Positions 31,426 to 47,620 are shown, numbered from the stretch's first letter. The stretch: 47,620 bases of DNA from Acidobacteriota bacterium (GCA_022571885.1 JACZWZ010000003.1:1-47620), one strand, 5' to 3'. Program-made: numbers and translations. The notes: a model not told the origin generated them from the letters alone.

Positions 31426-32769
31426 TCACTCAGCAGACCTATCGGGTTCGGTACCTCGGCTCAACAGCCGGTCGAGATCGTCGACCTGGGCAAGAACATC
31501 GAGCCGGAGCCCCCCGAGGGTTTCGTGGAGCTTGCCGAGCGATGCCGTGATTGTCGTCACCGAGCGGCGCGCCCCGCTCAATGTTTCGGCCGCCTTGCGG
31601 ATGCGGTCGATTCGGTCTGCGATCGCTCCGGTGTCTAGTTCTGCTCCGGCGCCGGTCGCGTTTGTCGTGGATGCCGCGGCCCATTGCATGGCGATCGACG
31701 TCATCGCTCCGTCACCTTCGTCGACCGTGAGCACTCGATTGCCGTAGACGTTGAAAAGACCTACTTCGGCCGGAAATGCGTCTCGGCCGGCGATGCACAC
31801 CGCCGCATCGGCCCGGCGGTTGGTCATGGCGGCGTCGAGCTCCTCGAGGATCCCACCGGATCCGGCGAGGGTGATCGAGGCGTGCCTCTTGGCCTCGACC
31901 ACGATCCGGAGACCGTCACCGAGGGTGACGACGAAATCTCCGACCTTGGAGGAGGCAGTGAGGGTCCCGACGCTGGTGCTGGTGCGCTCGACGATGCTGC
32001 CCTTAGAGGTGGAAGCCCAACGGCGCAGGTTGGCCTCGACGACGTCTTCGAACTCGAGGCCGTGAGCCGTTCCACGCTCCGCTTCGGTGAGGCGTGCCGT
32101 TTCGGCCGCCCGATCACCGGCGAGATCGTGCCTCAGTTCGTCAAATCGCTCGTCGATCAGGCGGCCCAGCCGGGCGAATGCCGAATCCCCCTCATCCATG
32201 TCGAGGGCGGCGGCGAGCCTGCGTTCCAACGCACCGTCGGGGCCGACGAGGTCGAGGAGCCGCTGGATGAGAACTGTGGCGGCGCTTCCTTCGATTCCGG
32301 GGTCCAGACCGTCGAGGAACTCATCGCGCCACGCAGTGAAATCTGACAGAGCCCTGGCAAGGATGGACGAGCGCTGCTCGGGATCGAACTGCTTGCTGAG
32401 ACTGGCCCGGCTCTCGTCGATGATGGCGCGCACGGTTGCCTGGGCCTCGGTGGTGACCGATTCGAGCACGCGGTGGACCCGGGTATCGATCGCGGTGAGG
32501 TCGATCCCGATGCCCATTGAAGCAACCCCCTGAACTCCGACGCTCATGATTCGGAGTAGCAAATCGGCACGGTCATCGTTGCCGGAAGTGGCGACCATCT
32601 CCACCACGGCGCGATCGGTGACGACGAGGTGCTCGATGATTAGCTGATCGTCATCGAGCAGCACCAGGCCCTTTCCCGGGTCCGGCTCTGGGTCCACCTG
32701 TGGACCCCGTGGCTCTGGGCCCGGTGGCTCTGGGCTCCGAGGATCGATCATGTGGATGCCGGTAGTCAT
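31426..32769 (-). CDS. Hypothetical 447-aa protein with helical N-terminal region and restriction-endonuclease-like motif (DUF2130/RmuC-like pattern)
   Basis: AHGLEFEDVVEANL...KVGDFVVTLGDGLRIVVEAKR fits a G-x-x-F-E ... D ... E-x-K nuclease-fold pattern. The N-terminus is Pro/Glu-rich. The family assignment is not verified. Confidence 0.4.
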   Translation of the reverse strand: MTTGIHMIDPRSPEPPGPEPRGPQVDPEPDPGKGLVLLDDDQLIIEHLVVTDRAVVEMVATSGNDDRADLLLRIMSVGVQGVASMGIGIDLTAIDTRVHRVLESVTTEAQATVRAIIDESRASLSKQFDPEQRSSILARALSDFTAWRDEFLDGLDPGIEGSAATVLIQRLLDLVGPDGALERRLAAALDMDEGDSAFARLGRLIDERFDELRHDLAGDRAAETARLTEAERGTAHGLEFEDVVEANLRRWASTSKGSIVERTSTSVGTLTASSKVGDFVVTLGDGLRIVVEAKRHASITLAGSGGILEELDAAMTNRRADAAVCIAGRDAFPAEVGLFNVYGNRVLTVDEGDGAMTSIAMQWAAASTTNATGAGAELDTGAIADRIDRIRKAAETLSGARRSVTTITASLGKLHETLGGLRLDVLAQVDDLDRLLSRGTEPDRSAE

Positions 32770-32910
32770 GGGCTCAACGTAGGGCCGAGGTGTGACAGGA
32801 ACGAGGGGGCGTCCGTGTCCAGTAGACCTTCTGTATCGGGGGCCGTTCCGTTCCAGGCCGAGCCTTGCTTCAGTGGGTCGACGCGCCTCCCGGACTCACG
32901 TCGGTGTCCC

Positions 32911-33009
32911 GGTCGAGGTTCCCGATTCCCGAATCCCGACGCAGCGGATCTCGATCGGGCATCGGACATCGAGTATCTGGCATCCGGTACCGGGTGTCGG
33001 GAATCGTCC
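32911..33009. repeat. Composite heptamer element (short subfamily): GGTCGAGG + (NTTCCCG)x3, then ATCGGGC-type x8
   Basis: 32918-32938 holds GTTCCCG ATTCCCG AATCCCG. 32954-33009 holds ATCGGGC ATCGGAC ATCGAGT ATCTGGC ATCCGGT ACCGGGT GTCGGGA ATCGTCC. It lies between divergent operons. Confidence 0.9.
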
Positions 33010-33053
33010 CGCCGGTGCGGTGTCGGAGCCGGTGGCGTGCCACAATCCGGACC

Positions 33054-34496
33054 ATGATCGACCACGCTCCGTCACCGGATCAGTTGCTGGGGCTGACCGC
33101 GACTCTGGAGCGACTCGATCTCGGCTCGATCGGTGAGGCGGCCGAGGCCTGTCGTCACAGAGCGGCAATCGCCGCTGGGCAGTATCTCGTGCCCAGGCTC
33201 ACAAGTGAATCCGACACGATTGTGGTCGCCGTAGTCGGTCCGAGCGGCGGAGGGAAGTCCACCATCGTCAACTCACTGGCGCGCCGTCGCATCAGCGAAG
33301 TCGGATCGCTGCGGCCCACTACCGTCGAACCTGTGGCGTGGACGGGTGGAGAAGTCCCACCCACGCTCGATGGCTTGCGAAGTCGGGTTGCAGGTTTCCT
33401 GGTCGATTCGCTTCGCCCGCCTCCCGAGGGCGTGGTCGTCGTCGACACTCCACCGCCCGAAGTCGTTGACGACGCCGGCGTGCCGATCGTTCGGCAGATC
33501 CTCGAGATTGCCGATGCCGTCATCTTCGTTGCGGGAGCCAGCAGGTATGCCGATGCGGGAGGCTTTGCTCTTCTGGGCCTGGCCGCCGAGCGCGGGCTTC
33601 CGACCGTCATGGTGCTCAACCGGCTGCCCGAATCTTCTGAGTCACACCAGGTCGTTGCGGCCGATTTCGCAGCCAAGCTGGCAGCACGTCGACTGCTGCC
33701 GCGCTCCGCGGCAGATCTGGTCATAACCATCGCCGAGGGCATCGTGTCGTCGGACACGGGTGCCCTTGCCCCCGAAATCGTTGCCAGCGTGGCCAAGGAC
33801 CTCGAGGCGATGGCCGATCCGCAGTCGCGGCCCGGCATCATCGCGGCGGCGGTCGCCGGTTCGATCCGCCGGCTGCGGGACGACCTCGCCGTGATCAGGA
33901 CCCACGTCTTCGATCGGGCGACCCGCCGCGTCGAGCTGCTGGATCCAATGAGGGCAATCTATCGGGCGGAGGGGCGCCGTTTGGTGGCAGAGGTGCGCCG
34001 CGGGAAGTTCGCCGGGACCGGCGTCGCCGAATTGGTCGATGGTCTGGCATCGGCAGCCACCCGCCGGGCCGGCCTGGCGGCGCGAACTTCAGCGGAGCTG
34101 TGGCACAAGTCGGAGCCGGCGATCGTCGAATCGGTGCCCGACCTGTTTGGCCACGGTATCGAAACGCTCGAGGTGGCGCATGACCGCCTCGAGTTCTGGC
34201 TCTCGGAACTCGATGATCTGCCGCGGCGCATGTCCCGGCGTCGCCTCGGCGCCCGGAACAGGCGTCGGCTGGCCGAGTCGGTTCGGATCGCTTCGATAGA
34301 CCCGCGTTATGTCCCCGGCCGCAGGGTGGCGCGGCGGCTGGCGAAGATTCCAGGGCTGGTCGAGTCGGCTCGAGACCGGCTGGCCGACGAACTACGAGGG
34401 ATTCTGGAGACGGATTCCCTTCGGTTTGTCGAGCGACTCGGACCGGTCGTCACCGGCCGCGATCTGACCGAACTCTCCGCCGAGGCGTACGAATGA
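33054..34496 (+). CDS. P-loop GTPase, dynamin-like/HSR1-like, with long helical C-terminal region (480 aa)
   Basis: G1 is VVGPSGGGKST and the G3-like motif is VVVVDTPP. The G4 position reads LNRLP, which is degenerate. The C-terminal ~300 aa is Ala/Arg/Leu-rich. ATG at 33054 is the first start after the repeat element. Confidence 0.65.
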   Translation: MIDHAPSPDQLLGLTATLERLDLGSIGEAAEACRHRAAIAAGQYLVPRLTSESDTIVVAVVGPSGGGKSTIVNSLARRRISEVGSLRPTTVEPVAWTGGEVPPTLDGLRSRVAGFLVDSLRPPPEGVVVVDTPPPEVVDDAGVPIVRQILEIADAVIFVAGASRYADAGGFALLGLAAERGLPTVMVLNRLPESSESHQVVAADFAAKLAARRLLPRSAADLVITIAEGIVSSDTGALAPEIVASVAKDLEAMADPQSRPGIIAAAVAGSIRRLRDDLAVIRTHVFDRATRRVELLDPMRAIYRAEGRRLVAEVRRGKFAGTGVAELVDGLASAATRRAGLAARTSAELWHKSEPAIVESVPDLFGHGIETLEVAHDRLEFWLSELDDLPRRMSRRRLGARNRRRLAESVRIASIDPRYVPGRRVARRLAKIPGLVESARDRLADELRGILETDSLRFVERLGPVVTGRDLTELSAEAYE

Positions 34497-35689
34497 GCGA
34501 CGCCATGACGGTCGTCGAAGGTCTGGACTTCGTCGTCAGCCTTGCAGCCGGTCTGGTGCATCCAGAGGACCTCGATGCTGCTCGGAACGTCGCCGACGCG
34601 GCGCGAGAGCGCGCCGGGCATCTCGGGGCGACCATGGTCCTGGCACTGGTCGGAGGGACCGGGTCGGGTAAGTCGAGTCTGCTGAATGCGCTCGCCGGCG
34701 AGGAGGTTGCATCAACCAGTCCGGTGCGGCCTCACACCACGGAACCGTTGGCGTGGATACCCTCCAGAACCGAGCCGTCGCTGTCGCTGCTGCTCGACCG
34801 CCTCGGTATCGGTCGGCGGGTGACGCACAACCAATTCGAGCAGTTGGCGATTCTCGACATGACCGACATCGACAGCATCGCGGCCGGGCACCGGAGTCTG
34901 GTGGAGCGGGTGATGCCCGAGGTCGACTTCGTGGTGTGGGTGCTCGACCCGGTCAAGTATGCGGATCCGGTGCTGCATCGAGACTTCATCGTCCGTCTGG
35001 CAGATTCGTCGGATCGGCTGATCTTTGTGCTCAATAAGGTCGATCGCCTCGATGAGGCCAATCTGAAGCCCGTCACCGACCATCTCGGTCGGTTGCTGGC
35101 AGATGACGGAATCGACCAGCCGGTCATCTTCGAGGTCGCCGCCGACCCGCCCGGCGGCGAGACTCGCGGAATCGAAGAGCTTGTCGCCCACCTCAAGGCG
35201 CGTCTCGACGAGAAGCGAATCCACGTCGGCAAGATCATCGATGATGCTCGGCGGGTCTCGGGGGCGGTGGCCGGTGCCGCCGGCGTGACTGCCGGAGGTT
35301 CACTCGATTTCGAGGAGCGGTGGCTATCGGTTCGGGAGATGATCGTCACCGATGTGGACGAGGGAGGCGGTGCTGCCGCCGTCGAGGAGGCATTGCGGCT
35401 GATTGAGGGCTTCATCCTGAAACTATCTACCGACGCCGGTGGTGTCTTCGGATCGCGATTGCGCCACTCCTTTGATCCGGACCGGATCGAAACGGAGCTC
35501 TTGGCTGCGCTGCAGGCAGCCGCGGTCGGGGTCGACCCCGACCGGGATCTCGACCGTCAGTTGCAGGAGCGGTTCGGGGCACCGTTACGGACACTGCTGT
35601 GGGAACGGGCCTCGCTGGCCGCGGCCGTTGCCGGGCTTGCGGTCGATGCCACGACGGTCGGCGAGAGCATCGGCCGGTCGCCTTCGTGA
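34493..35689 (+). CDS. P-loop GTPase, second member of the pair (398 aa)
   Basis: G1 is LVGGTGSGKSS and G4 is VLNKVDRL. The G3 position reads ILDMTDID, with no Gly. ATGA overlap with the upstream GTPase. Confidence 0.65.
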   Translation: MSDAMTVVEGLDFVVSLAAGLVHPEDLDAARNVADAARERAGHLGATMVLALVGGTGSGKSSLLNALAGEEVASTSPVRPHTTEPLAWIPSRTEPSLSLLLDRLGIGRRVTHNQFEQLAILDMTDIDSIAAGHRSLVERVMPEVDFVVWVLDPVKYADPVLHRDFIVRLADSSDRLIFVLNKVDRLDEANLKPVTDHLGRLLADDGIDQPVIFEVAADPPGGETRGIEELVAHLKARLDEKRIHVGKIIDDARRVSGAVAGAAGVTAGGSLDFEERWLSVREMIVTDVDEGGGAAAVEEALRLIEGFILKLSTDAGGVFGSRLRHSFDPDRIETELLAALQAAAVGVDPDRDLDRQLQERFGAPLRTLLWERASLAAAVAGLAVDATTVGESIGRSPS

Positions 35690-36558
35690 CCGGCTGGCAG
35701 GAGTGGCCGGCGCGGCATCGGCTCGAGGCGCTGGCAAACGCTCCGGAGGGGGGCGAAGCCGAGAACGGATCGCTCATCGCGGCTGAGCTTGCAATCTTCG
35801 TAGAGAGGATCGATGCCAACGCTCCAGAGGCCTTCCCGGAGGCCATCGACTTCGTGGTGCGATCGATCGTTGCTCAACGGCCCACCAGTGCTCCGGTGCT
35901 GACTCTCGCCAACGCAGTCTTTCTCACGATCGACCGGGGGCCGGCGACGGTCATTGCCGAGGTGCGGGCGGTGGCCGAGCGACTCCGGACCTCGGTCGGC
36001 ATCCTGGCCACGATGGGCGCCGCCTTCATTCCGGACGGTGGTTCGGTTCTGGCACATGGGACGTCTTCGTCGGTCAGGCAGCTGCTGGAGACCGCGGCCG
36101 GCGACAAGAAGTTCCGTGTGATGTGCGGCACCGGGTGGGATGGAGCAGGCCGGCTGTTCGCATCCGATCTGGCAGACGCCGGCATCTCCGTGGAGTTGGT
36201 GGATCAGGATCTGGTAGTCGACTCTCTGTTGGGCGTCGACCTGATCATCACCGGGGCGTCTGCATTCGGCCCGGTGACGATGATCAATACCGTCGGCACC
36301 GATGTGCTGGTGAGAGAAGCAGCCGGCCTGGACCTACGGGCTCTGCTGGTGGCGTCCGCCGACAAGGCGCTTCCGGCCCGTCTGTTCGCTCGTGCCGCCG
36401 CGGCAGTAGCAGGAATGCCGGGCCTCGAGGTCGTGGGTCTGGAGCATTTCGAAGCCATCGTCACCGAACTCGGCGTGTTCGACTCGGCGGCCGCCGGTCG
36501 CCTTGCCGAGCGACGTGAGGTCGCTCCTCAGCTGGCGGAGCGCGACCAGCGAGGGTGA
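35686..36558 (+). CDS. IF-2B family protein (eIF2B alpha/beta/delta - MtnA fold)
   Basis: RPTSAPVLTLANAV, IPDGGSVLAHGTSSSV, KKFRVMCGTGWDGAGRLFASDLADAGISVELV and DLIITGASAFGPVTMINTVGTDVLV follow the IF-2B domain pattern. GTGA overlap with the upstream GTPase. Confidence 0.65.
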   Translation: MTGWQEWPARHRLEALANAPEGGEAENGSLIAAELAIFVERIDANAPEAFPEAIDFVVRSIVAQRPTSAPVLTLANAVFLTIDRGPATVIAEVRAVAERLRTSVGILATMGAAFIPDGGSVLAHGTSSSVRQLLETAAGDKKFRVMCGTGWDGAGRLFASDLADAGISVELVDQDLVVDSLLGVDLIITGASAFGPVTMINTVGTDVLVREAAGLDLRALLVASADKALPARLFARAAAAVAGMPGLEVVGLEHFEAIVTELGVFDSAAAGRLAERREVAPQLAERDQRG

Positions 36559-36608
36559 GTCCCGGCAGTCGAACCCCTCTGGTCTTTGGTCGGCGAGGCT
36601 GCTCGGTC

Positions 36609-37517
36609 TTACACCGCCACGATCAGAAGGCTGCGCGACTCGGGTCGAATGGTGATCGAGGAGGCTCGACCAAGAAGCTCGCCATCTGCTTCGATCCAGG
36701 ATGAAGGCTCGGACGTGATTTCCAGCCGTTCGAAGCCTTCCCAGATCTTCACCCCGGGCACCCGCGCCAAATCACGCTTGGCACCTGCCCGGGCGAGTAG
36801 GTAGAACAGGCGCAGGGTTGAGACCCGAGTGATCACAGCTGCGATCGGCTTTGGGCCGGTTCCGAGGGTGAGTGGGATCCGCCCGAGGTAGGTGAAGCGG
36901 TCGTGGACCTGTGTCAGCACTGCCACCGCATCTGCCGTGCTGGTGCCGTCGGTGACCCGAAGGGTCGGAAGCCGATCCCGGAAGGTTCTCGCCACCCTGG
37001 AGGTGCTGCGGGCGTAGTGGAGTGTGCCGAATCCGATCTTGGAGAGAGGGCGCCGTTCCGACTCCTTGATTACTTCGGCGTCGAAGCCGATTCCGGCGGC
37101 GAAGGTGGCGATGTGGCCACGAGTGGATTCGCCTATGCCCTCGGTGATGTGGAGAGTCGGCACCGCTCGGGTCCCAATGGCGTCGGCCAGGAACTCAGCG
37201 GCGTCGCGCGGCTTACGGGGCAAGCGGATGATGCGGCGTAAGACGTTGCTGGTTCCGGCGGGGATGATCCCGAGGGCGGCACTGGTGCCGATTACGGCGT
37301 TGGCCACTTCGTGGACAACACCGTCGCCGCCCATGGCCACGACGACGTCGAAGCCATCGGCTGCGGCGGCAGCCGATTCGGTGCGGGCCTGGGCCGGGCC
37401 GTTGGGCCAAATGGCGGTCACATGGAATCCGCGTTCGAGGATCTCGACCACGTCGCGGTGGAGCGGCGCGGTGAAGCCGGATGCGGCCGGGTTGGCGACG
37501 AGGAGGAGTCGGCGCAT
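36609..37517 (-). CDS. Diacylglycerol/lipid kinase catalytic-domain protein
   Basis: Starts at MRRLLLVANPAASG, with AMGGDGVVHEV (GGDG motif). The longer 416-aa ORF has an Arg/Pro-rich, non-protein-like N-terminus. Confidence 0.75.
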   Translation of the reverse strand: MRRLLLVANPAASGFTAPLHRDVVEILERGFHVTAIWPNGPAQARTESAAAAADGFDVVVAMGGDGVVHEVANAVIGTSAALGIIPAGTSNVLRRIIRLPRKPRDAAEFLADAIGTRAVPTLHITEGIGESTRGHIATFAAGIGFDAEVIKESERRPLSKIGFGTLHYARSTSRVARTFRDRLPTLRVTDGTSTADAVAVLTQVHDRFTYLGRIPLTLGTGPKPIAAVITRVSTLRLFYLLARAGAKRDLARVPGVKIWEGFERLEITSEPSSWIEADGELLGRASSITIRPESRSLLIVAV

Positions 37518-37678: not shown

Positions 37679-38302
37679 GTGAGTCGGTACCGGGATCGTT
37701 TAGACGCCGGGTGTTCGCTCGGAGGCTTCCTGACTCATCTCCATGGGTCCACACCGCTGGTGCTGGGGATCCCCCGTGGCGGGGTGGCGATCGCGGCAGA
37801 AGTGGCCGACCTGCTTGAGGGTGAGATCGGGTTCGTGCTCGCCACCAAGGTCGGCGCACCCTGGAGCAGGGAGTTGGCGATCGGAGCGGTCGCTCCCGAT
37901 GGGGTGGCTCTGCTCGACGAGCCGATCATCAAGAGTATGGGCCTGGATCAGACGGAGGTGGATGCCGAGGTCGAGCGTTCGCTGGTGGAGCTTCAACGTC
38001 GGCAGGCAGTCTTCGGTGGAGATGCCCCCCAAGTGGCCGGACGGGTAGTGATTGTCGCCGACGACGGTGTGGCCACCGGAGCCACCTTGCGGGCGGCGTT
38101 GGCCTACGTGCGCCGGCTCGGCCCGGACCGTTTGGTGTGTGCGGTTCCGGTGGGGCCGCCGGCGACAATCGACCAGCTGGCATATGAGGTGGACGAGATC
38201 GTGTGTCCGATGCAGCCGGATCGGCTGCGCGCCGTCGGGGAGTGGTACGACGCCTTCCCTCAATGTTCCGATGCTGAGGTGCTGGAACTGCTGGGCCGGT
38301 AG
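37679..38302 (+). CDS. Phosphoribosyltransferase family protein
   Basis: YRDRLDAG...VLGIPRGGVAIAAEVA and the PRPP-binding motif VVIVADDGVATGATL. Confidence 0.75.
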   Translation: MSRYRDRLDAGCSLGGFLTHLHGSTPLVLGIPRGGVAIAAEVADLLEGEIGFVLATKVGAPWSRELAIGAVAPDGVALLDEPIIKSMGLDQTEVDAEVERSLVELQRRQAVFGGDAPQVAGRVVIVADDGVATGATLRAALAYVRRLGPDRLVCAVPVGPPATIDQLAYEVDEIVCPMQPDRLRAVGEWYDAFPQCSDAEVLELLGR

Positions 38303-42327: not shown

Positions 42328-43437
42328 ATGACAGCGGTGATGACACCTCCGGCGACCGACGGGTTCCCGATGTTTTCGGAGGACCTGGTGGAGCGGTTGG
42401 TGCAGCAACGTCGTGCGGCGGCTTCGATCGAGGCCGAGTGCACTGCTCTGGTTGCCGAGATGATCCGGCGCGACATCCACGATGATCTCGGTTACCGGTC
42501 GATGACATCGCTGCTGATGGACCGTCTCGGCGTGTCGGCCGGCGTGGCTCGGGCGATGATCAGCGTCGCTACTGCGGTGGCCGACATGCCGCCCACTCTC
42601 GCCGCACTGACGTCGGGTGACCTCGATCTGGCTCGGGTGCGGTTGCTGGTCGCAGCGCGTGAGATCAACTCGACGCTGTTCGCCGATCATGAACAGACGC
42701 TGGTCGACACCATCTCCGGGCTGGGGATGCGTGATGCCGGTCGAGCGTTGGACTACTGGTCGCAGCAGGCCGCCCTCGACGTCGTCGAGCACGATGCCCA
42801 GACGGTGCGGGAACGGCGCCGTCTGCACGTATCGGTCCTGAGCGGGATGGTGCACATCGACGGTCGCCTGGATCCGGTGGCCGGTCAGGTGGTGATCACC
42901 GCTCTCAACAGCCTCACCGATTCCGCCAACCTCGATTCCGACGACGGGCGCACCGCTTCCCAGCGTCGCGCCGACGCCCTGACCGATCTGTGCCGGGATC
43001 ACCTCGACCACAACGATCTTCCGGCCCAGCGCAAGGAGCGTCCCCACGTGATGGTCCATCTCTCGCTTGAAGCGTTGGAAGGCCGGGCCGGCAATCCATG
43101 CGAGTTGGATGACACCGGTGTGATCACTCCACAGACTGCACGACAACTGGCGTGCGACGCCAAGATCACCCGCGTCATCACCCGGGGCGAGTCCCAGGTG
43201 CTCGATGTGGGGCGGGCCACCCGAGTGATCTCAACAGGTCTTCGCAGCGCTCTTGTGACCCGCGACGGCGGCTGCATCATCGACGGTTGCGGAGCTCCCC
43301 GGCGCTGGTGCGATGCGCACCACGTTGTCCACTGGGCCGACGGCGGACCGACCAGTCTCGACAACCTGGTCCTGCTGTGCGGGCGTCACCACACCTTGGT
43401 CCACGACGGCAGAGTCCGACTACCCCGGCGGGAATGA
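42328..43437 (+). CDS. DUF222 domain + HNH endonuclease (13E12-repeat-family type)
   Basis: 369 aa with a DUF222-like N-terminal two thirds. The C-terminal HNH region is CIIDGCGAPRRWCDAHHVVHWADGGPTSLDNLVLLCGRHHTLVH. Confidence 0.85.
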   Translation: MTAVMTPPATDGFPMFSEDLVERLVQQRRAAASIEAECTALVAEMIRRDIHDDLGYRSMTSLLMDRLGVSAGVARAMISVATAVADMPPTLAALTSGDLDLARVRLLVAAREINSTLFADHEQTLVDTISGLGMRDAGRALDYWSQQAALDVVEHDAQTVRERRRLHVSVLSGMVHIDGRLDPVAGQVVITALNSLTDSANLDSDDGRTASQRRADALTDLCRDHLDHNDLPAQRKERPHVMVHLSLEALEGRAGNPCELDDTGVITPQTARQLACDAKITRVITRGESQVLDVGRATRVISTGLRSALVTRDGGCIIDGCGAPRRWCDAHHVVHWADGGPTSLDNLVLLCGRHHTLVHDGRVRLPRRE

Positions 43438-46693: not shown

Positions 46694-47620
46694 TTACTGG
46701 CTACCGGTCACCTTGACGTACATGTCGTCGTCGTAGCACCACTTCCACTCATACGGCCCGGGGACTGCCGGCACGGTGTTGGGGTGTCCGGTCTCGAGCC
46801 AGTGCTTGGTGCCGTGTGCCAATTGGCTCTCACAGCAACCGATGTGACCACATGTAACGCACAACCGGGTTTCCTCGTGAGAACCGCACTCCCCACACCG
46901 GGGCCGGTGTCCGGCCTTGTCGACCTGAGGATTCCAGTGGATGCAGGAGCCGGGGATAGTCGGGATCTCGATCGGCCGGGGCGAGTCGGCGGCCAGCCCG
47001 TCGGCCGACAGGATCCTGAGTTCGCCGTCTTCCGTCGCCAGGTAGAGCTCAGCGCCACGAAACAGCGCACGCCGCACCCAGGCCGGTGCCGCGACTCGTT
47101 CGACAGCCTCGCCGAGCGGGGTCCATATCGCAGCGGTCCCGTCGGCCGAGGCCGTCACCAGCCGGTCACCCGATTCGTCCCAGGTCACCGACCACACTTG
47201 AGCGGCATGAGCCGGTATGACGATGGGATCGCCGGCGGCGACGTCGACGATACGCAGGCGACGGTCGCGACCGGTCCAGGCGACGCGCCGGGCGTCCGGG
47301 GACAGGGCGACGCTCCACAACAGCTGGTCGGCACCAGACACAGTGCGACGCAGCCCTCCATCGCCATCGAGCAAGTACAGCTTGCGGTCGCCGTTGGCAA
47401 CCGCAATGACGTCGCCACGCCAGTCCACCGAATTGGTCGGGTAGCCCAGATCGATGCGGCGCACCGCCGAGCCGTTGGGGTCCCAGATTCCGACCGTTCC
47501 GTCCTCGGAACCGCTGGCGATCATGGAATCGTCGTCGGACCAGGTCACCGACATGACCCAGTGAGCGTGGTCGCCCACCACATAACTGCGTCCGATCAGA
47601 GGGTCGTACACCCGCACGGG
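46694..47620 (-). CDS. WD40-repeat protein with C-terminal UBP-type zinc finger (N-terminus outside window)
   Basis: WD units include WVMSVTWSDDDSMIASGSEDGTVGIWD and VWSVTWDESGDRLVTASADGTAAIW. The C-terminal sequence CGECGSHEETRLCVTCGHIGCCESQLAHGTKHWLETGHP...WKWCYDDDMYV fits zf-UBP. Confidence 0.7.
   Translation of the reverse strand, partial: PVRVYDPLIGRSYVVGDHAHWVMSVTWSDDDSMIASGSEDGTVGIWDPNGSAVRRIDLGYPTNSVDWRGDVIAVANGDRKLYLLDGDGGLRRTVSGADQLLWSVALSPDARRVAWTGRDRRLRIVDVAAGDPIVIPAHAAQVWSVTWDESGDRLVTASADGTAAIWTPLGEAVERVAAPAWVRRALFRGAELYLATEDGELRILSADGLAADSPRPIEIPTIPGSCIHWNPQVDKAGHRPRCGECGSHEETRLCVTCGHIGCCESQLAHGTKHWLETGHPNTVPAVPGPYEWKWCYDDDMYVKVTGSQ

Follow-up and report, generated by a model that had tools for sequence, protein, structure and literature searches.

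A 47,620-nt stretch of DNA from an Acidobacteriota bacterium (GCA_022571885.1, JACZWZ010000003.1:1-47620; hereafter the window) was found to carry an operon of three genes, in which two adjacent genes for dynamin-like GTPases (G1 and G2) are followed by a gene for a protein of the IF-2B fold (IF2B). The three genes form a conserved, translationally coupled operon of the class Acidimicrobiia. In our judgement there is about an even chance that it is a core-chromosome operon for a heteromeric pair of dynamin-like proteins (DLPs), supplemented with a lineage-specific, non-catalytic accessory subunit of IF-2B fold. The evidence established in the analysis covers the structure and coupling of the genes, the protein folds, the state of the nucleotide-binding motifs, the loss of catalytic isomerase residues and a conserved order of genes. 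No specific name for the combination of G1, G2 and IF2B was present in any database searched.

The three open reading frames lie on the plus strand and are joined by stop/start overlaps of 4 nt, ATGA between G1 and G2 and GTGA between G2 and IF2B (Table 1); both were found exactly where an earlier reading of the same DNA, made from the sequence only, had placed them. The ATG start of G1 is supported since its homologues have the same length of 480 amino acids (aa), and the GTG start of IF2B is backed by the N-termini of its homologues together with loci in which the start at -4 is the sole option. The junction between the G2 stop and the IF2B start was then scored in the Acidimicrobiia loci; it was -4 nt in 30 of 36, five others had +1 or +5 nt, and the one left (L038) was unscorable owing to an apparent frameshift. 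The junction of G1 with G2 was -4 or -1 nt in all 27 loci allowing scoring. By these counts the gene arrangement is more than a product of chance, and the -4 overlap of G2 with IF2B persisted down to 41% identity of IF2B, even where the flanking genes were different.

The gene order was compared across 60 related loci (numbered with the prefix L). The genome and metagenome scans were made with no more than one or two peptide patterns, and the co-occurrence sample is therefore biased, being mostly anchored on IF2B. All relatives of IF2B with at least 38% identity and enough upstream DNA had G2 directly upstream and G1 before G2. Members at 32-36% identity (L053, L057) were also located behind a G2 gene, in L057 with a gap of 89 nt and a GGAGG of its own. 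The trio was intact in a clade of about 42% identity (L004, L009, L037, L042, L043) that lacks the diacylglycerol kinase (DAGK) gene and a divergent 447-aa gene. When loci were collected from the GTPase side, only five Acidimicrobiia loci were obtained, with IF2B present in three and absent in two. G1 and G2 were always found together, and the trio is syntenic in relatives across the whole class, a point that the sequence-only reading had put forward for checking.

To define the nucleotide-binding motifs, conservation was scored across 46 G1 and 46 G2 family sequences. The P-loop, the switch-I Thr and the G3 Asp are retained in both GTPases, and the motifs quoted in the sequence-only reading (GPSGGGKST and NRLP in G1; GGTGSGKSS, DMTD and NKVD in G2) are all present. 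The canonical set of G motifs (G1 GxxxxGK[ST], G2 Thr, G3 DxxG, G4 [NT]KxD) is departed from at G3 in both proteins and also at G4 in G1. The glycine of DxxG was missing in all 46+46 sequences; the G3 of G1, earlier described as near-canonical, has Pro in its place, and Pro or Asp is found there throughout the G1 family. The G4 of G2 does read NKVD, as would suit its description as canonical, but its Lys is not conserved (family N[KQR]xD). Both GTPases therefore retain the residues for nucleotide binding and hydrolysis, and the Asp that specifies guanine is missing in G1 only. The pair had been said to show complementary degeneracy; the G4 Asp does differ between the two proteins, but the degeneracy is only partly complementary because the G3 Gly is lacking in both, with P-loop, switch-I Thr and G3 Asp being intact in both.

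Homologue searches yielded 198 relatives of G1 and more than 513 of G2, nearly all of them from metagenomes or metagenome-assembled genomes of Acidimicrobiia. Relatives of G1 at about 35% identity were also detected in the cultured Actinomycetes Cellulomonas, Isoptericola and Promicromonospora, where RefSeq labels them 'GTPase' or 'dynamin family protein'. In Cellulomonas flavigena (CP001964; L007 8001-17628) there are two separate overlapping DLP pairs, of 566+524 aa and 667+542 aa, on either side of ssb and an ABC-F gene; G2 has slightly more similarity to the longer pair, namely to its second gene. G1 and G2 are themselves paralogous (hhalign 99.5%, E 2.4e-22) and have unusual features in common, namely RP[TH]T, [RK]YAD and the Gly-less G3.

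AlphaFold (AF2) models of G1 and G2 were built from alignments of 46 sequences, with confidence (pLDDT) of 90.4 and 88.1, respectively. In both models two N-terminal helices are followed by a GTPase domain and then by six to ten C-terminal helices, and the helices on the two sides together make up a helical bundle. The top Foldseek matches of G1 in the Protein Data Bank (PDB) were BDLP 2j68, Fzo1 9kfd, IniA 6j72, DRP1 and Cj-DLP 5oxf (E 3e-7 to 1e-5, probability 1.0), and those of G2 were the Campylobacter jejuni DLP1/DLP2 pair 5owv, EHD4, mitofusin-2, IniA and BDLP (E 2e-9 to 6e-8, probability 1.0); DRP1/dynamin and IRG proteins were further dynamin-superfamily neighbours of the models, and the mitofusin/Fzo1 neighbours were minimal constructs. 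The TM-scores were only about 0.3-0.45, as is expected for multi-domain, hinge-containing proteins. The assignment to the dynamins rests on this fold, because sequence searches gave only generic matches: the GTPase profiles retrieved from the PDB sequences the P-loop and G4 regions of Der/EngA, Era and ABC ATPases, and did not retrieve IniA, BDLP, LeoA or Cj-DLP at E <= 0.01.

Among family models, Pfam Dynamin_N matched G2 with 38.2 bits and G1 with 27.0 bits (cut-off 27) over only about 36 residues around the P-loop, and MMR_HSR1 matched G1 weakly in the P-loop region (26.8 bits). No NCBIfam model came near its cut-off for G1, G2 or IF2B, the scores of the GTPases being 30.9 bits for DynA (cut-off 1600) and 14.8 bits for CrfC (cut-off 1146). 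In PADLOC the GTPases matched LeoA, PifA and mad3 at P-loop level only, the LeoA match of G2 reaching 31.7 bits across 38 residues, and IF2B matched nothing. By the predicted models, then, G1 and G2 are of dynamin-like architecture and, by sequence, outside every characterised DLP family. The sequence-only reading had compared them with bacterial dynamin-like pairs of greater length, which agrees with the dynamin-superfamily neighbours and the lengths of 480 and 398 aa, and its suggested check for membership of IniA/IniC, LeoA or another curated family returned none by sequence in the NCBIfam, PADLOC and PDB profile searches.

Neither protein has a transmembrane segment, as had been noted before: the highest Kyte-Doolittle means over 19 residues, 1.57 in G1 and 1.75 in G2, are not transmembrane-like and fall in the GTPase core and the N-terminal bundle helix. 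A hydrophobicity scan of segments revealed no membrane-binding paddle, transmembrane hairpin or lipid-binding loop in either protein. The C-terminal helices of G1 (34206-34373), on the other hand, are Arg-rich, conserved and amphipathic (R..RRR..RR).

The third gene had been assigned to the IF-2B domain, and this was borne out by a match to Pfam IF-2B (PF01008) of 48.5 bits against a cut-off of 22.4 (E 9e-13). When a profile of the IF2B family was searched against the PDB, the best match was the archaeal PH0440 of Pyrococcus horikoshii (1vb5; E 8e-26, residues 36-267), followed by eIF2B-alpha (1e-23), ribose-1,5-bisphosphate (R15P) isomerases (5e-23 to 6e-21) and eIF2B beta/delta (about 1e-14). 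MtnA gave the weakest of the IF-2B matches (4e-13 to 2e-4), and IF2B scored 54.6 bits with TIGR00511 (R15P isomerase), for which the cut-off is 314. The window contains no methionine-salvage genes, and IF2B has neither a methionine-salvage nor an AMP-pathway context; the case of a bona fide MtnA, which the sequence-only reading had named as refuting, is not borne out.

The catalytic columns were located with the help of PDB pairs of wild type and active-site mutant aligned to IF2B. For the Cys column, 'THCHS' of 3a11 and 'THSHS' of the mutant 3vm6 (Thermococcus kodakarensis) aligned to 'AHGTSS', placing Gly125 at this position, and 'LTHCNAG' of Thermotoga maritima MtnA (1t9k) aligned to 'LAHGTSS'. 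For the Asp column, 'GADS' of 5yfs and 'GANS' of the mutant 5yft (Pyrococcus horikoshii) aligned to 'GASA', placing Ser192 there. The check for the catalytic Cys and Asp, which the sequence-only reading had proposed, thus found both lost. Gly125 is nearly invariant across the family, and the position of Ser192 varies among S, N, F, M and D, with Asp retained only in more distant clades. IF2B is a true member of the IF-2B family but, with the catalytic Cys and Asp replaced in this way, not an isomerase by the known mechanism. It may still bind some phospho-ligand, since S127, T205, K227 and the TE.G motif are invariant in the family.

The close family of IF2B is small. A word-indexed search gave 24 clusters, and an exhaustive scan of 1.84 billion representatives gave only about nine clusters (at 50% identity) with full-length alignments at E <= 1e-24. 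Of the 141 representative proteins closest to the family, 128 carry Ser in the Cys column along with intact ESRP, GAD and NKxGT motifs, and both Cys and Asp are present in only three. This Ser-containing group, of the PH0440 type, also occurs in bacteria (Hydrogenimonas, Chloroflexota), where its proteins are named 'translation initiation factor eIF-2B'. The earlier statement that the prokaryotic IF-2B fold is known only from isomerases has therefore to be given up in favour of a large uncharacterised Ser-at-Cys group that includes PH0440 and extends to bacteria. In the clade of IF2B, CGTGW stands in place of ESRP and NTVGT in place of NKxGT, and there is a unique N-terminal signature, M-T-x-W-x-x-W-P-x-[WR]-R-R. 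By these motifs the clade branches from the Ser-containing group as an offshoot that has decayed further. One member of that group was seen in another setting: on an unrelated metagenome contig (L017 4781-6618), the stop of a Ser-at-Cys IF-2B protein (P0024) overlaps the start of an NTP_transferase gene by 4 nt, a pairing that recalls eIF2B alpha/beta/delta with the NTP-transferase-like gamma/epsilon subunits.

Table 1. Features of the G1-G2-IF2B operon and its upstream region (positions in the window)
Feature	Position	Strand	Description
G1	33054-34496	+	480-aa dynamin-like nucleoside triphosphatase
G1 P-loop VGPSGGGKST	33234-33263	+	family GxxGxGKST
G1 switch I RPTT	33312-33323	+	family RPTT
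G1 G3 DTPP	33444-33455	+	no Gly; family D[TA]P[PD]
G1 G4 NRLP	33618-33629	+	no Asp; family NR[LV][PT]
G2	34493-35689	+	398-aa dynamin-like GTPase; start within G1 stop, ATGA 34493-34496
G2 P-loop GGTGSGKSS	34652-34678	+	family GGTGxGKSS
G2 switch I RPHT	34727-34738	+	family RPHT
G2 G3 DMTDIDS	34856-34876	+	no Gly; family D[ML]TDxDS
G2 G4 NKVD	35033-35044	+	family N[KQR]xD
IF2B	35686-36558	+	290-aa non-catalytic IF-2B-fold protein; GTG start within G2 stop, GTGA 35686-35689
IF2B N-terminal motif (V/M)TGWQEWPARHR	35686-35721	+	family-specific
IF2B LAHGTSSSV	36049-36075	+	Gly125 at catalytic-Cys position
IF2B TGASAF	36250-36267	+	Ser192 at catalytic-Asp position
TGcCACAAT element, extended -10-like	33038-33046	+	7 nt before G1 ATG; proposed promoter
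Heptamer repeats	32919-33006		TTCCCGA x3 at 32919-32939; imperfect inverted heptamer array 32954-33006 (TRF, repeat scan)

By analogy with known DLP pairs, G1 and G2 would assemble into a heteromeric machine of the dynamin type that works at the cytoplasmic membrane or the envelope. Nearby envelope genes give weak support to such a role, which is drawn by analogy only because the pair has no hydrophobic membrane-binding element; the Arg-rich C-terminal helices of G1 would be the likely contact with anionic lipid. The downstream genes would be translated by termination-reinitiation at the overlaps, so that IF2B would be made in step with G2, and we infer that IF2B is a lineage-specific accessory subunit of the pair. 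Most plausibly it would act as a dimeric hub linking two G1-G2 units, since proteins of the IF-2B fold are constitutive dimers; alternatively, it might be a phospho-ligand sensor that tunes assembly. We put forward only tentatively, and with more doubt than belief, that IF2B is a dedicated subunit of the machine, whose dimer would bind and bridge two G1-G2 heterodimers or gate their nucleotide cycle on sensing a phosphorylated metabolite. The sequence-only reading had drawn a parallel to the exchange factor of eIF2, but no evidence was found that IF2B is an exchange factor and nothing ties it to nucleotide exchange; eIF2B alpha/beta/delta contact eIF2-alpha and not the G domain.

Several observations weigh against an accessory subunit of a membrane-acting DLP pair. 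Overlaps of 4 nt are frequent in high-GC operons, and the whole block PK-VanW-PDDEXK-HD-GYP-unknown-G1-G2-IF2B-DAGK-PRT-MFS (PK, pyruvate kinase; PRT, phosphoribosyltransferase; MFS, major facilitator superfamily) is syntenic class-wide, so that adjacency alone is weak evidence. In L006 and L008 the G1-G2 pair is followed directly by DAGK without IF2B, and the GTPase pair of Cellulomonas flavigena (L007) also lacks it; IF2B is to this extent dispensable for the pair, and the link is not obligate. Conversely, L059 (310-4266) has a member of the IF2B family (P0270, with the N-terminal WxxWxxWRR motif intact) without the GTPase pair, in the order PDDEXK-MscS-IF2B-DAGK, which means that IF2B can persist alone in the same syntenic block. 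The trio as a unit, as first proposed, thus held with regard to coupling and conserved order and did not hold in these loci, where either IF2B or the pair is absent. The invariant S127, T205, K227 and TE.G leave room for an autonomous ligand-binding role of IF2B. To the same side belong the missing hydrophobic membrane-binding element in G1 and G2 and the limitation of their sequence-level matches to generic Era/Der P-loop regions of solved structures.

In the main rival reading IF2B works independently of the GTPases, as a ligand-binding or regulatory protein (for a ribose-phosphate or phosphoribosyl pyrophosphate (PRPP) type of ligand) that belongs with the metabolic genes nearby, for the PRT-fold protein and a DAGK-like lipid kinase, and is merely co-transcribed with the pair. 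We hold this to be rather unlikely. It draws on the invariant residues, on the two loci with the pair but no IF2B, on the locus in which IF2B without the pair still stands beside DAGK, and on the PRT gene located 23-24 nt downstream on the same strand in the clade of about 42% identity; the ligand of PRT-fold proteins is PRPP, which is closely analogous to the substrate of R15P isomerase. However, the catalytic Cys and Asp are lost and ESRP and NKxGT are degraded in the clade, the stop/start overlap with G2 is kept down to 41% identity, DAGK is on the opposite strand and was lost in one clade in which G2-IF2B is intact, and the PRT protein has no specific family assignment.

Readings in which the pair acts on DNA, in defence or in translation have little support. 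It is improbable that the pair acts on DNA through the Arg-rich C-terminus of G1 in the manner of the clamp-binding DLP CrfC: the conserved R..RRR..RR region, a neighbouring PD-(D/E)XK nuclease gene, a nearby RecQ in one locus, the ssb gene adjoining the homologous pair of Cellulomonas and a very weak NCBIfam match to CrfC would all suit this, but that match reached only 14.8 bits against 1146, the nuclease, RecQ and ssb genes are outside the operon, and no clamp-binding motif turned up, though no search aimed at one was made. Equally hard to credit, and a shade more so, is an anti-phage or stress defence module formed by a LeoA/DynA-like pair with the neighbouring PD-(D/E)XK nuclease and HD-domain proteins. 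B. subtilis DynA reportedly contributes to phage resistance, and the PADLOC run that the sequence-only reading had recommended matched G2 weakly to LeoA (31.7 bits, limited to the P-loop) and gave the PDDEXK_1 neighbour a DruK-like match; no defence model was matched beyond generic motifs, however, so that the locus has no real match to a defence system, and throughout the class the block holds a fixed core-chromosome place next to pyruvate kinase, VanW, gltX and related genes, with G+C of 61-66% without an atypical stretch and without adjoining mobility genes. A defence system was rejected as the leading interpretation, the PADLOC matches being at P-loop level only. Least probable of all, and very remote, is that the GTPases are ribosome-associated proteins of the Era/Der type joined by the eIF2B-like protein in translation control. 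Der/EngA and Era were the best sequence-level PDB matches (P-loop and G4 regions), NCBIfam gave weak Era/Der matches, names from the Joint Genome Institute (JGI) include 'ribosome biogenesis GTPase A' and 'EngB', and archaeal PH0440-type proteins are said to bind a/eIF2-alpha; against this, the matches cover generic motifs only and are far under curated cut-offs (Era 39 bits vs 237), no KH or other RNA-binding domain is present, the whole-protein fold matches are to the dynamin superfamily with flanking helical bundles, and bacteria have no eIF2.

With regard to expression, a 12-nt motif, cGTGCCACAATC (window 33036-33047), was found 7-8 nt before the G1 start in 14 distinct loci, which besides the window are L001, L003, L006, L010, L013, L014, L022-L024, L026, L029, L031 and L049. 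It is kept at G1 identities of 45-86%, and the surrounding intergenic DNA is unconserved. The motif resembles an extended -10 element (TGn + CACAAT), and no Shine-Dalgarno sequence precedes G1; the operon mRNA is probably leaderless and driven by this conserved element. A generic scan for sigma-70 promoters and terminators reported no promoter and one terminator-like site, inside G1, against 1.8 expected by chance, and within the operon no internal promoter or terminator signal rose above expectation. Rfam gave no match across 32500-36800. The G+C content is 61-66% across the whole window, with no atypical stretch at the operon.

The heptamer repeat that had been noticed in the divergent intergenic region is indeed present, with three copies of TTCCCGA. 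The relative L010, at 86% identity, has another number of copies (about nine, at 216-282), and no array is present in L002 and L023, where the intergenic region is short or differs. The heptamers were considered as a conserved operator and rejected because of this variable copy number and absence elsewhere; they are probably not a core part of the operon.

Core genes around the operon in the window are gltX, pyruvate kinase, CofC, a VanW/PASTA protein and LytR-CpsA-Psr. A conserved PRT-fold protein of 207 aa is encoded downstream (window 37679-38302; L004 10178-10813). In the clade of about 42% identity without DAGK its gene may be co-transcribed with IF2B, as it follows on the same strand after 23-24 nt. 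The divergent 447-aa protein (31426-32769, minus strand) is encoded beside G1 in most lineages and lost in the same clade; neither Pfam (even at E 5) nor the PDB sequences gave a match to it, its Pro-rich N-terminus comes from a 15-nt tandem repeat (32701-32739), and it contains a possible D...E-x-K nuclease-like motif (GDFVV...VVEAKR). Further away are a gene for a DUF222 + HNH endonuclease protein (42328-43437) and a gene for a WD40-repeat protein with a C-terminal zf-UBP zinc finger (46694-47617), which reaches the window end.

What is known of bacterial DLPs comes mainly from a few long pairs with paddles. Pairs of DLPs are a known kind, and the pair described here makes up a short, paddle-less subfamily with Gly-less G3 and a coupled IF-2B-fold gene; we know of no described DLP pair coupled to such a gene. 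Its significance is that minimal DLP pairs with a non-canonical switch II occur class-wide, and also in cultured Actinomycetes such as Cellulomonas. To our knowledge the IF-2B fold has never been reported together with dynamins, and in Acidimicrobiia it is the third coupled component. Should IF2B be a subunit, it would provide a tractable bacterial model for the step from isomerase fold to regulatory scaffold (the eIF2B alpha/beta/delta step) and a new type of accessory factor for prokaryotic membrane-remodelling GTPases. If it bridges the heterodimers or gates their cycle, it would be a bacterial, translation-independent case of a sugar-phosphate-isomerase fold turned into the regulatory core of a GTPase complex, in parallel to the origin of the eIF2B regulatory subunits. 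Should it be a co-transcribed passenger, the result would shrink to annotating a DLP subfamily that is new and an IF-2B paralogue that has decayed.

Among known systems, the pair is closest to the heterotypic bacterial DLP pairs, represented by C. jejuni DLP1/DLP2 (5owv/5oxf), mycobacterial IniA/IniC (6j72), Nostoc BDLP (2j68) and Streptomyces DynA/DynB. Like these, it consists of two adjacent, co-transcribed paralogous large GTPases with a GTPase domain and a bundle of flanking helices, and they are its best structural neighbours. It differs from them in length (480/398 aa vs roughly 500-700 aa), in having neither hydrophobic paddle nor transmembrane segment, in the family-wide change of the DxxG Gly of G3 to Pro or Asp together with the missing G4 Asp of G1, in the coupled third gene of IF-2B fold, and in the lack of any sequence-level match to DLP-pair proteins.

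As for IF2B, its best profile match over near full length is PH0440 (1vb5), which likewise has no catalytic Cys and whose group shares the size of about 280-320 aa and the single domain pair. In contrast to that group, the clade of IF2B has Gly and not Ser at the Cys position, has lost ESxP, NKxGT and, in most members, the GAD Asp, has its unique N-terminal motif W-x-x-W-P-x-[WR]-R-R, and is coupled to a DLP pair. R15P isomerase (3a11, 5yfs; TIGR00511) and MtnA (1t9k, 2yvk) are of the same fold and family, R15P isomerase being matched by the profile at full length (5e-23), but IF2B has Gly125 and Ser192 at the positions of their catalytic Cys and Asp, and MtnA is far more distant. With eIF2B alpha (3ecs, 6caj chain H), a homodimer that joins two sub-complexes, IF2B shares a non-catalytic IF-2B fold and a 1e-23 match that spans the C-terminal Rossmann-like domain; the residue in the Cys column of eIF2B alpha is likewise not Cys (THAYS), and Glu stands in the Asp column (GAE). 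The likeness is at the level of fold and sequence, whereas the partners by which eIF2B is defined are absent from bacteria, the organism has no eIF2 and no eIF2B beta/gamma/delta/epsilon, and the gene partners of IF2B are dynamin-like and not translational GTPases.

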